Origin: Escherichia coli
GTDB lineage: Bacteria > Pseudomonadota > Gammaproteobacteria > Enterobacterales > Enterobacteriaceae
Assembly: GCF_024502345.1 (NCBI RefSeq)
Contig: NZ_JALDNN010000001.1
Length of the DNA stretch: 64,000 bases
Direction: 5' to 3' (one strand)
Below the pieces are notes generated by a model. It was not told the DNA's origin, ran no database searches, and saw only the letters and a program-made list of their open reading frames with translations. The position numbers and the translations under genes are program-made. This document shows, one piece after another, positions 6,962 to 61,759 of the stretch; within the stretch, counting starts at the first letter, position 1; every line of letters begins with the position of its first letter.

Positions 6962-8119
6962 TTATTGTCCTGCGAGTTGCTGAAGGGCTGTGATGACATA
7001 GTCGGCATCGGCGGTAGTCATATCCGGGAACAGCGGCAAAGAACAGATGCGTTCGCTATTCCATTCGGTATTCGGTAACGACAGCGTGGGAAAACGCTCG
7101 CGATAATATTTTTGTGTGTGAGCGGCGCGGAAATGTAACCCGGTACCAATGCCTCTTTCTTTTAACGCTTCCATCAACGCATTTCGACTGATACCACAAC
7201 GTTGTTCATCGATACGAATAATAAACAGATGCCAGGCGTGAACGTGCGGCCAGGCGGGAAGGCTTAATGGCTGAAAGGGGAGAGCTGCCAGTGCTTGCTG
7301 ATATTGCAGGGCAATTTCGCGCCGACGGGTGTTGAGGTGCTCTAATTTAGCTAACTGTGTCAGGGCAATCGCGGCGTTAATATCGGTCAGATTGTACTTA
7401 TAGCCCGGAGTTAAGACTTCAGCCTGCGGTGCACGGCCCCAGGTTTGTCTGTCATAGGCATCGACACCCAGACCGTGAAATTTCAGCATCCGTAGCTGGC
7501 GGGCAAGGTTTTCATTATCAGTTACAATCAGGCCACCTTCAGCACAGGTAATATTTTTAATGGCATGAAATGAAAAAATAGCGGTACCTTTTGCGCCAAT
7601 ATGTCGCCCTTTGTAATACGTACCTACGGCATGGGCAGCATCTTCGATAACTGCGATGCCGTAACGTTCGCCAATGGCGCGAATGGCGTCAATATCTGCT
7701 GGCGCACCGGCATAATGCACCGGAATGATGGCTTTAGTGCGTGGCGTAATGGCTGATTCGATCGCTTCAGGCGTGACCATCAGCGTATCGCGATCGACAT
7801 CCACCATTACCGGTGTTGCACCCAGCAAGGAAATCATATTGAGGGTTGAAACCCAGGTCAGGGAAGGCGTAATCACTTCATCGCCCTTGCCAATTTCCAA
7901 CGCCATTAGCGTGATATGCATTCCGGCGGTGGCTGAACTGACCGCGATGGCATGCTGATTTCCCGTCAACTGGCAAAAGGCTTGTTCAAGCGCGTGATTC
8001 TTCGGACCGGTTGTGATCCAACCGGATTCGAGAACCTCTTTAACTGCAGCGAGTTCCTCCACGCCCATTGCTGGTCGCGAAAAAGGCAAAAATTCTGACA
8101 TTGCTTTTCCTTCCGCCAT
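6962..8119 (-). CDS. arnB: UDP-4-amino-4-deoxy-L-arabinose--oxoglutarate aminotransferase ArnB (385 aa from MAEGK; ORF extends to 8134)
   Basis: DegT/ArnB-type PLP aminotransferase ([11 protein letters not shown]..., [13 protein letters not shown]); first gene of the operon; start choice 8119 versus 8134 is uncertain. Confidence 0.93.
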
Positions 8120-8199
8120 TGAATACCTGTCCACTTATATTTGCTATAAAGAGTGTTGTGTATATTTTGCCATTTGGAGCGAAATTTTAAGGATAGAAT

Positions 8200-8216
8200 A
8201 TTAACTTAACCTTAAG
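8200..8216 (-). promoter_or_regulatory. PmrA (BasR) box upstream of arnB: CTTAAG-N5-GTTAAT when read on the minus strand
   Basis: Direct hexamer repeat with 5-bp spacer matching the PmrA consensus CTTAAT-N5-CTTAAT, about 80-95 bp upstream of the arnB start codon in the arnB-ais divergent intergenic region. Confidence 0.7.
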
Positions 8217-8408
8217 AAACTAATATTAGACGTAAATATTGAAATTTTTATATTTTTTCTTATTTAGGCTTTGCATTTGGCAAAATTTTGAGGCATTTTG
8301 CCGGCATCGCAGGATTTTTAATATTACACCAACTGCTAATTATCGCCAGAAATGTCGCTCAATTTCACGGTAATTGTCTGGTTGCGCTTGTCTATAGGTG
8401 GAGTTTAC

Positions 8409-9011
8409 GTGTTAGCTTTTTGCCGCTCTTCGTTGAAGTCAAAAAAATATTTCATCATTTTACTGGCGCTCGCTGCAATTGCCGGACTGGGTACTCATGC
8501 TGCCTGGAGTAGCAATGGTTTGCCACGTATCGACAATAAAACACTGGCCAGACTGGCACAGCAGCACCCGGTTGTCGTTTTGTTTCGCCATGCTGAACGT
8601 TGCGATCGTTCAACCAATCAATGCTTGTCAGATAAAACAGGTATTACGGTCAAAGGTACCCAGGATGCCCGTGAACTGGGCAACGCTTTTAGCGCTGACA
8701 TCCCTGATTTCGATCTTTATTCCAGTAATACCGTCCGGACCATTCAGTCCGCGACCTGGTTTTCAGCGGGTAAAAAGCTCACGGTAGATAAACGACTTCT
8801 TCAATGCGGTAATGAGATCTATAGTGCAATTAAAGACTTACAAAGCAAAGCACCTGATAAAAATATCGTTATTTTTACCCATAATCATTGCCTGACATAT
8901 ATTGCTAAAGATAAGCGTGATGCGACATTTAAACCTGATTATCTGGATGGTTTAGTCATGCATGTGGAAAAAGGCAAAGTTTATCTGGATGGGGAATTCG
9001 TTAACCACTAA
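8409..9011 (+). CDS. ais: Ais, lipopolysaccharide core heptose(II)-phosphate phosphatase, aluminium-inducible (200 aa, GTG start)
   Basis: Translation from GTG 8409 ([26 protein letters not shown]...) has a signal-like N-terminus and the histidine-phosphatase motif LFRHAER; the longer ATG-initiated ORF 8352..9011 is probably not the real start. Confidence 0.85.
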
Positions 9012-9475: not shown

Positions 9476-9753
9476 AGGGGTATTCCTTATAAATAAAAAG
9501 AAACCATGAGAATACGGTAACTCAGAAATATGTGAAAGTGACAGTAATCTCTTTTGCGATGATAACTGCACTTATTATTATTTTTGTGTGTATCGGTAAG
9601 CTGTGTTTATTTTTTCGGCGTTTAATTATTTAAGAAGTATTTAGTTACAATAAGTGACTAGATCCCTTTTTTCGCTCATTGAATCCTCTGCGCCAGGCAG
9701 TACAATCCCGCAGCTTTGGGAATTTTGATTAATTGCTTGTGGGAAAGGGGATA

Positions 9754-60115: not shown

Positions 60116-61759
60116 ATGGAACTTCTTGTACTTGTCTGGCGGCAGTATCGCTGGCCATTTATCAGTGTGATGGCGCTAAGCCTCGCCAGTGCGGCATTAG
60201 GCATTGGCTTAATTGCTTTTATCAATCAGCGCCTTATCGAAACGGCGGATACCAGTCTGCTGGTATTGCCGGAGTTTCTGGGATTATTGCTGCTGTTGAT
60301 GGCAGTCACTCTCGGATCGCAACTGGCGCTCACCACTTTGGGGCATCACTTCGTTTACCGACTGCGTAGTGAATTTTTCAAGCGGATTCTGGATACCAAC
60401 GTCGAGCGCATTGAACAACTCGGTAGCGCCTCGTTGCTGGCGGGATTAACCAGCGATGTGCGCAATATCACCATTGCTTTTGTGCGTCTGCCGGAACTGG
60501 TGCAGGGGATCATTCTCACTATCGGTTCAGCGGCGTATCTGTGGATGCTGTCGGGCAAAATGTTGCTGGTAACGGCTATCTGGATGGCGATCACCATCTG
60601 GGGTGGTTTTGTACTGGTGGCGCGGGTGTACAAACATATGGCGACCCTGCGTGAAACCGAAGACAAGCTGTACACGGATTTTCAAACCGTACTCGAAGGG
60701 CGCAAAGAGCTGACTCTGAATCGGGAACGCGCCGAGTATGTGTTTAACAACCTCTACATTCCTGATGCGCAAGAGTATCGCCATCATATTATCCGCGCAG
60801 ACACCTTCCATCTTAGTGCCGTGAACTGGTCAAACATCATGATGCTGGGCGCTATCGGCCTGGTGTTCTGGATGGCGAACAGTCTCGGTTGGGCTGATAC
60901 CAACGTTGCTGCGACCTATTCGTTGACACTGTTATTCCTGCGTACGCCGCTGCTTTCGGCGGTTGGCGCATTGCCGACGCTGCTGACGGCGCAGGTGGCG
61001 TTTAACAAGCTGAACAAATTCGCACTCGCGCCTTTCAAAGCAGAGTTTCCGCGCCCGCAGGCGTTTCCCAACTGGCAAACGCTGGAGCTGCGTAACGTGA
61101 CGTTTGCTTATCAGGATAACGCGTTTTCCGTTGGTCCGATTAACCTCACCATCAAACGTGGTGAACTGCTGTTTCTGATTGGCGGCAACGGTAGCGGAAA
61201 ATCGACGCTGGCGATGTTGCTGACGGGCTTGTATCAGCCACAAAGCGGCGAAATCTTGCTGGATGGCAAACCTGTCAGCGGCGAACAACCGGAAGATTAT
61301 CGCAAACTGTTTTCGGCAGTGTTTACCGATGTCTGGCTGTTTGATCAACTGCTGGGGCCGGAGGGTAAACCCGCTAACCCGCAACTGGTTGAGAAGTGGC
61401 TGGCGCAGCTGAAAATGGCTCATAAGCTTGAGTTAAGCAACGGGCGTATTGTTAACCTGAAGTTATCAAAAGGGCAGAAAAAACGCGTGGCGCTGTTGCT
61501 GGCGCTGGCAGAAGAACGCGATATTATCCTGCTGGATGAATGGGCGGCGGATCAGGATCCACACTTCCGTCGTGAGTTTTATCAGGTGTTGCTGCCGCTG
61601 ATGCAGGAGATGGGTAAAACTATTTTCGCTATCAGTCATGATGATCATTACTTTATCCACGCCGACCGCCTGCTGGAAATGCGCAATGGGCAACTTAGCG
61701 AGCTGACGGGCGAAGAGCGCGATGCCGCTTCGCGTGATGCCGTTGCCCGGACGGCATAA
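60116..61759 (+). CDS. yojI: ABC transporter permease/ATPase YojI, microcin J25 efflux (547 aa)
   Basis: N-terminal TM domain plus C-terminal ABC ATPase with Walker [10 protein letters not shown], signature LSKGQKKR and Walker B ILLDE. Confidence 0.94.

Follow-up and report, generated by a model that had tools for sequence, protein, structure and literature searches.

The intergenic DNA considered here separates arnB from ais in a 64-kb window of the Escherichia coli chromosome (contig NZ_JALDNN010000001.1), and all positions refer to that window, i.e., to the whole stretch that was analysed. The 801 bp from 7900 to 8700 were found in 5418 of 5426 complete E. coli genomes, and the annotation places arnB on the minus strand and ais on the plus strand, which bears out the gene calls of an earlier reading made from the letters alone (hereafter, the sequence-only reading). 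That reading was also right about the ais start codon, a GTG at 8409, and about the AT-rich character of the divergent region: G+C content is 33.6% in the intergenic DNA (8102-8408) vs. 51.4% in the whole window, and ranges from 23 to 34% over stretches of the region. Within this DNA lies one binding site for PmrA/BasR, which is oriented toward arnB, very probably drives that gene and likely serves ais too, such that a single dimer site would activate both divergent genes. The elements on the arnB side are:

8216..8200, minus strand: PmrA/BasR box, CTTAAG-GTTAA-GTTAAT (CTTAAGGTTAAGTTAAT), unique in the window, the top match to a position weight matrix and present in orthologues
8216..8211, minus strand: half-site 1, the palindromic CTTAAG
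8205..8200, minus strand: half-site 2
8189..8184, minus strand: predicted arnB -10 hexamer, TAAAAT, 10 bp downstream of the box, a geometry present in 71/77 arnB loci and in 13/13 ais lineages
8171..8180, minus strand: predicted arnB transcription start region, with the transcription start site (TSS) near 8177, placed from the -10 hexamer and containing CCAAATGG

The motif that the sequence-only reading had proposed, CTTAAG-N5-GTTAAT at 8200-8216 of the minus strand, is there to the letter; its full sequence has no second copy in the window, and 100 dinucleotide-preserving shuffles produced it 0 times. Because a matrix that included Escherichia boxes would make the test circular, we built the position weight matrix from 38 distinct arnB-upstream boxes of non-Escherichia genera only. 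When both strands of the window were scanned with it, a check that the sequence-only reading had suggested, the box ranked first at 21.4 bits. The second-best match (CATAAGCTTGAGTTAAG, 61421-61437, plus strand) scored 15.0 bits, and the best scores in 500 mononucleotide shuffles of the intergenic region had a 95th percentile of 12.5 and a maximum of 21.56. Whether the site merits the label "consensus", which it had been given, depends on the definition: it fits exactly the Salmonella-derived one, in which half-site 1 is CTTAAG and half-site 2 is XTTAAT, 5 bp apart (PMC3973317), but it has one mismatch (the G at position 1 of the second half-site) to YTTAAK-N5-YTTAAK, and loose YTTAAK repeats of this one-mismatch type occur in the window at chance level (4 observed vs. 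2.95 expected). The proposed distance to arnB is likewise a matter of annotation: counted from the K-12 start codon, the box covers -81 to -97, in keeping with the 80-95 bp given, but from the start codon called by the Prokaryotic Genome Annotation Pipeline (PGAP) it covers -99 to -115.

The position and orientation of the box are maintained far beyond E. coli. For comparison, 80 arnB loci were fetched across Enterobacterales and 81 upstream regions were scored; 77 of the 81 contain a forward-oriented box, and in 71 of these 77 a TAnnnT hexamer follows exactly 10 bp past it, the sequence of the 10-bp spacer being free to vary. Three positions of the arnB hexamer (T8189, A8188 and T8184) are invariant in both alignments of close relatives (A1 and A2), and among 5414 genomes of E. 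coli itself, 5227 show no difference within the aligned part of the 41 bp that comprise the -10, spacer and box. At the position where a -35 element of arnB would be expected the sequence reads AGGTTA, in which no -35 is recognisable; because TAnnnT follows at a fixed 10 bp, we take the box to stand in for a -35, much like the pho box of PhoB. The CCAAATGG of the start region is kept in four Escherichia lineages, and Citrobacter and Salmonella carry the related CCAAATGA, CTAAATGA and CTAAATGC. In having direct-repeat half-sites 5 bp apart, a placement at the -35 position facing arnB and conservation among orthologues, the element has the properties of a PmrA box, and the claim that a PmrA/BasR site precedes arnB is supported by the order-wide comparison.

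Footprints or structures of PmrA exist for orthologous boxes, namely for Klebsiella pbgP box1 (footprints in PMC2565834) and for Salmonella, and a comparison with a known footprint, which had also been proposed as a check, comes out in agreement. The Klebsiella footprint has its proximal edge at -22 from the PmrA-dependent TSS (PMC2565834, Fig. S3 legend), which fits a box with its 3' end at -23, and the -35 element there lies at half-site 1 of the pbgP box (PMC4660055). In E. coli, a PmrA consensus "with a slight modification" has been reported in the arn regulatory region (PMC10729948, 2023), and an arnB promoter reporter used as a readout of PmrA activity was induced at low pH in a manner that needed pmrA (bioRxiv 10.1101/2020.05.05.080051). 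A PhoP box, (T/G)GTTTA-N5-(T/G)GTTTA, through which PhoP directly controls pbgP in Klebsiella and Yersinia, has no match upstream of arnB, the best candidate having 3 mismatches in 12, and E. coli is stated to lack a PhoP box at the arn promoter (PMC2565834). We are highly confident that the PmrA box drives arnB. Phosphorylated PmrA bound there would recruit sigma-70 RNA polymerase from a class II, PhoB-like site that replaces the -35 and ends 10 bp before TAAAAT, and arnBCADTEF would be transcribed from a start near 8177, with a leader of 58-76 nt. In the Citrobacter amalonaticus locus (L005:1720-1960), the arnB leader contains an insert of about 200 bp, conceivably REP- or MITE-like, that is G+C-rich and has hairpin potential; because of it the box lies at -327 from the start codon, although neither the box nor the hexamer at +10 nor the ais-side block is disrupted.

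The case of ais is less direct. Matrix and pattern scans of both strands revealed no second PmrA box above background on the ais side or in the ais orientation: at 8.85 bits, the box read on the opposite strand and an isolated half-site at 8317 come next in the intergenic region, and neither reaches the 95th percentile of the shuffles. The sequence-only reading had seen no clean second box either and had left two options for ais, i.e., that it shares the arnB site or uses a degenerate one. Sharing is now the better supported of the two and the degenerate site the less so; a second full box for ais was rejected. We favour the shared site because the box is retained upstream of ais where arnB is no longer adjacent, because BasR binds the ais promoter in an electrophoretic mobility shift assay (EMSA) and because ais mRNA is 2.64-fold lower in a basSR mutant (the latter two in PMC12419081).

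To choose between these two options, we assembled 13 lineages that have ais: four Escherichia, two Salmonella and three Citrobacter with divergent arnB and ais, C. tructae, and three in which no arn-type gene lies beside ais. These last three are Intestinirhabdus alba (gene order menE-pmrD-ais), C. rodentium (menE-ais) and a genome labelled C. freundii (menE-ais); in C. tructae (L088:1-1280), the divergent neighbour of ais is not arnB but a gene of the PMT/ArnT family, an arrangement suggesting that arnBCAD was lost and that the promoter now drives an arnT-like gene. All 13 have exactly one full box upstream of ais, always pointing away from ais (i.e., in the arnB-facing orientation), and the four without adjacent arnB are no exception. 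In the three that have no arn-type neighbour, identity to E. coli is 14-15 of 17 positions in the box and 11 of 12 in the two ais hexamers described below, and is 39-46% in the remaining ais-side DNA. Because the box is so similar amid such divergent surroundings, we take it to be under purifying selection where ais is the sole adjacent regulon gene. Most arnB loci, for their part, carry the box without ais. In the four lineages that lack an adjacent arnB, the box and the hexamer past it were located as follows:

L084:1818-1850: retained box and TAnnnT, Intestinirhabdus alba
L085:1865-1897: retained box and TAnnnT, C. rodentium
L089:1316-1348: retained box and TAnnnT, the genome labelled C. 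freundii
L088:1318-1350: retained box and TAnnnT, C. tructae

On the side once occupied by arnB, all four have TAnnnT (TAGAAT, TAATAT, TATATT and TACTCT) at a distance of exactly 10 bp from the box, although the 10-bp spacer has diverged; TAnnnT has a per-position frequency of 0.037 there. In C. rodentium the hexamer adjoins a remnant of the arnB start, ATGGCTGAAGG, and was apparently restored when an internal deletion joined this remnant to the box. In the three lineages without an arn-type neighbour, the predicted leftward transcripts enter hairpins after menE or pmrD.

For the core promoter of ais, the comparison offers a candidate:

8217..8270: AT-rich linker from the box to the candidate ais -35, 54 bp in E. 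coli
8271..8276, plus strand: candidate ais -35, TTGCAT (TTGCnT in 12/13 lineages; TTTTAA in E. marmotae)
8294..8299, plus strand: candidate ais -10, CATTTT (GCATTTT invariant in 13/13 lineages)

In 12 of the 13 lineages the two hexamers are separated by a fixed 17 bp of variable sequence, and their identity to E. coli is 10-12 of 12 positions vs. 30-73% in other ais-side intergenic DNA. Conserved hexamers with a constant gap and a variable spacer are what a sigma-70 core promoter would be expected to leave, and we give an even chance to TTGCAT-17-CATTTT (8271-8299) being the ais core promoter, from which transcription would start near A8306 and yield a leader of about 103 nt. In the most likely scheme, PmrA bound at the box would activate this weak promoter from upstream, the centre of its site falling near -98 in E. 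coli, and at -88 or -77 in lineages with shorter linkers, as counted from the ais start. The linker measures 54 bp in six lineages, 44 in five, 33 in one and 41 in one (C. tructae). The 54-, 44- and 33-bp classes differ by 10-11 bp, or about one helical turn, as would arise under a face-of-helix constraint, but this pattern is suggestive only, because roughly three indel events underlie it and the 41 bp of C. tructae break it.

A number of observations weigh against a simple model in which one site activates both genes. The absence of the arn operon in L084, L085 and L089 was shown locally, beside ais; and because the leftward TAnnnT is also kept in the lineages without adjacent arnB, retention of the box cannot surely be credited to ais, as it could instead have been retained for some leftward function. 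Of its 12 positions, the candidate ais promoter shares only 6 with the sigma-70 consensus, and the promoter scan did not call it, although a weak match would be expected of an activator-dependent promoter. A centre near -98 is far upstream for an activator of the OmpR family, and the helical phasing has the few indels and the C. tructae exception just mentioned. Kim 2012 (Table S1) lists no TSS in the intergenic region, the conditions having been non-inducing. Finally, PmrA has been proposed to act at the arn promoter as a block to RNA polymerase, with QseB as the activator (PMC10729948), which disagrees with simple activation by PmrA; that proposal in turn conflicts with the class II geometry described here and with the low-pH induction that required pmrA.

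A possible explanation for the retention of the leftward hexamer is that the whole arnB-facing module (i.e., box and -10) is required for the activation of ais. Polymerase recruited by PmrA to the leftward promoter would then activate the ais promoter about 100 bp away, by means of transcription-generated negative supercoiling or of a phase-dependent protein bridge. Such a scheme would explain both why TAnnnT is kept at 10 bp in the absence of arnB and why the linker steps are mostly 10-11 bp; we nevertheless regard it as improbable. As a variant idea, the leftward promoter of loci without arnB might make a short PmrA-dependent RNA with a function of its own.

The shared-site model has to be set against several others. 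One of them grants ais a degenerate PmrA site near its promoter and leaves the strong box to arnB. Candidates for such a site are TTTGAG, which at 8287-8292 closely precedes CATTTT and reads TTTAAG in most relatives, and TTTAAT at 8317-8322, the 8317-8333 segment scoring 8.85 bits; half-sites resembling TTTAAG are found in the promoter spacer of most lineages, and half-boxes in Klebsiella do yield PmrA footprints, albeit weaker ones (PMC2565834). However, these scores lie within the shuffle background and a second half-site is lacking; TTTGAG, the form that E. coli has, is the weaker one, conservation of the 8317 motif is confined to Escherichia, and the full arnB-facing box before ais in lineages without arnB would be left unexplained. 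We consider a separate site for ais unlikely. Only slightly less doubtful, in our judgement, is an ais promoter close to the box, with -35 TTAAGA at 8212-8217 (overlapping half-site 1), a 17-bp spacer, -10 AATATT at 8235-8240 and a TSS near 8247, in which case TTGCnT-17-CATTTT would be an operator or a leader element of something else. With 8 of 12 consensus positions matched, this arrangement outdoes the distal candidate; A8234, A8236 and A8238 are invariant in the 13 lineages, most of which have a hexamer with A at position 2 located 17 bp past TTAAG[A/G/C] (TTAAGA in nine). Against it, T6 of the hexamer is unconserved (AAGATA in Salmonella, no counterpart in C. tructae), class II activation would call for the opposite orientation of the box, and the fixed-gap pair farther out does look like a promoter; the competing hairpin reading of that block is unconserved and has no Rfam match (no covariance model matched 7900-8700 at E <= 1). 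In E. coli the block contains an inverted repeat, GGCAAAAT/ATTTTGCC (8279-8286 / 8295-8302), which is conserved only in Escherichia and C. amalonaticus and shows no covariation, such that a hairpin or attenuator was rejected; E. coli has no terminator call, and the single call in C. rodentium is considered coincidental.

Two further alternatives concern the box itself, and the first of them involves a probe whose equivalent in the window is:

8178..8237, minus strand: equivalent of the QseB EMSA probe, containing the box and differing by one base from the probe of PMC10729948

Phosphorylated QseB shifts this 60-bp arn probe in EMSA (PMC10729948), and the arn promoter was recovered by chromatin immunoprecipitation on microarrays (ChIP-on-chip) of QseB, arnB being 2.16-fold lower in a qseB mutant (PMC10597456). 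Because QseB is a paralogue of PmrA and is associated with the promoter by both the probe shift and ChIP-on-chip, it is a likely co-occupant. That QseB functionally occupies the site, instead of or together with PmrA, is a possibility we hold more seriously than either alternative for ais but still doubt, in that the box fits the PmrA consensus and not the quoted QseB consensus, low-pH induction of the arnB reporter needed pmrA and the QseB effect is modest; the two regulators are not mutually exclusive. The other alternative is that the box is a chance TTAA-rich match in AT-rich intergenic DNA. The base composition of the region, the comparable score of the best of 500 shuffles and the chance-level frequency of loose repeats all lend themselves to this view, but the lack of an exact copy in any of the 100 shuffles, the first rank in the matrix scan and the maintenance of position, orientation and +10 geometry in about 77 genomes effectively refute it, and we accord it a negligible probability. 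A single site shared by arnB and ais remains the reading that we prefer.

Single CRP sites can serve divergent promoters, acting as a class II site for one and as a class I site for the other. The arrangement proposed here is alike in that one site would serve two outward promoters, with linkers to the far promoter (54, 44 and 33 bp) that change in steps of whole turns; it differs in that a position near -98 exceeds those typical of class I sites and in that the PmrA site is a direct repeat and not a palindrome. With the pho box of PhoB it has in common a tandem repeat that ends 10 bp before the -10 and replaces a recognisable -35 (an analogy drawn in PMC4660055), whereas the recognition sequence and the regulator are different and the contact between PmrA and sigma region 4 is only putative. 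The nearest counterpart is the pbgP(pmrH)-pmrG pair of Salmonella enterica, which resembles E. coli in its genes, divergent layout, single same-facing box (CTTAATGTTAATTTAAT, in L083 and L090), TAnnnT at +10 and TTGCTT-17-CATTTT on the pmrG side, but has CTTAAT instead of CTTAAG as half-site 1 and a linker of 44 instead of 54 bp. In Klebsiella pneumoniae, box1 of pbgP (CTTAATATTATCCTAAG), for which crystal and nuclear magnetic resonance structures of the PmrA-DNA complex exist, is likewise a direct repeat of hexamers 5 bp apart, bound by a head-to-tail PmrA dimer, with the -35 at half-site 1 and the same +10 TAnnnT geometry. However, this box lies at about -170 from the start codon, next to a PhoP box and another promoter that depends on PhoP, whereas E. 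coli is without a PhoP box; and in the Klebsiella-group loci that were fetched, the 2 kb upstream of arnB do not contain a divergent ais.

In Enterobacterales, polymyxin and colistin resistance of chromosomal origin arises mainly through the arn operon, whose products attach aminoarabinose to lipid A, and its PmrA promoter is therefore clinically relevant. This promoter is already well characterised, and the window contributes another E. coli copy of it: the box has been published for E. coli, and the binding of BasR to the ais promoter has been reported. Our additions are modest, and consist of the order-wide geometry of box and +10 hexamer, the comparative case for sharing, a candidate ais promoter with quantised spacing and the retention of the leftward -10. 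A single arnB-oriented box that also accounts for ais (or pmrG) provides a concrete model of one response-regulator site with two divergent promoters, for which genomes that naturally have no arn genes beside ais are ready-made controls. Both transcription starts, which correspond to about 2365852 for arnB and 2365723 for ais in MG1655 v3, the identity of the ais core promoter and the long-range mode of activation are, in this model, predictions from sequence comparison. The K-12 allele differs from the window in the intergenic region at four positions only (8304, 8310, 8337 and 8356), each outside every element proposed here (8304 and 8310 lying outside the ais hexamers); because these differences spare all of the elements discussed, published results from K-12 should transfer directly. 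The 45-bp stretch with the ais promoter is identical to the window allele in only 996 of 5412 E. coli genomes, K-12 being among those that depart from it there, at 8304 and 8310.

The translation signals that flank the intergenic DNA are:

8099..8119, minus strand: alternative arnB start codons, ATG 8101..8099 (PGAP, 379 aa) and ATG 8119..8117 (K-12, 385 aa)
between these two ATGs, before ATG 8101, minus strand: arnB Shine-Dalgarno sequence, AAGGA, read from the sequence
8395..8411, plus strand: ais Shine-Dalgarno sequence, GGTGGAG, with the GTG start (8409), from sequence and annotation

From ATG 8101 the arnB protein would begin MSEF..., and from ATG 8119 it has a longer N-terminus; the upstream ATG is kept in frame in Salmonella and Citrobacter (MAEGKMMS, MAKGNMMS).

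Rearrangements at two loci affect the ais side. In Escherichia sp. E1V33 (L002), the linker has lost 21 bp, or two helical turns, equivalent to about 8241-8261. The sole plus-strand call of the promoter scan in E. coli, TAGACG-16-TATATT (8227-8254), was rejected, being unconserved and falling in the stretch deleted in E1V33. In E. coli 2017-19-1CC (L092; NZ_AP027854.1), a natural variant, an IS1 element stands between menE and ais; pmrD is gone together with the entire arn operon, the PmrA box and the candidate -35 of ais, and the sequence picks up again at 8283, shortly before CATTTT. A sigma-54 reading of GGCA...GC was rejected for its misfit in both spacing and conservation. The spacer of the candidate ais promoter (8277-8293) also has a TTT...AAA dyad (ATTTGGCAAAAT in E. 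coli, CTTTCGCCGAAAG in Salmonella, CTTTCAGGACAAAG in L089 and TTTTGCAAAA in C. amalonaticus), which about 8 of the 13 lineages share and which might serve another regulator as its operator.

The intergenic region contains three short direct repeats. These pair 8179-8192 with 8280-8293, 8221-8231 with 8319-8329, and 8187-8203 with 8212-8228; two of the pairs, GCGAAATTTTAAGG/GCAAAATTTTGAGG and TAATATTAGAC/TAATATTACAC, are 98-101 bp apart, and there is further similarity between TTTGCCATTTGG (8166-8177) and TTTGCATTTGG (8270-8280). These matches suggest that the halves with the arnB and ais promoters arose by an old tandem duplication of about 100 bp, although chance in AT-rich DNA could also produce them.

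Elsewhere in the window, the sequence TTTAAGAAGTATTTAGT upstream of yfaZ (9629-9653, plus strand) is a one-mismatch YTTAAK repeat directly before TACAAT, the apparent -10 of a yfaZ TSS listed by Kim 2012. Its spacing to TACAAT is 0-1 bp and not 10, which misfits the class II geometry of PmrA, and matches of this kind occur at chance frequency. Table S1 of Kim 2012 also assigns to arnB a weak TSS with a count of 6, which lies 691 nt upstream of the gene, at about 8810 on the minus strand, is antisense within the ais coding region and is preceded by TTGCAC...TATAGA. Also inside ais is a genomic peak obtained by systematic evolution of ligands through exponential enrichment (genomic SELEX) with a minor sigma holoenzyme, at U00096.2 position 2363146, which corresponds to about 8905 in the window (PMC5493296).

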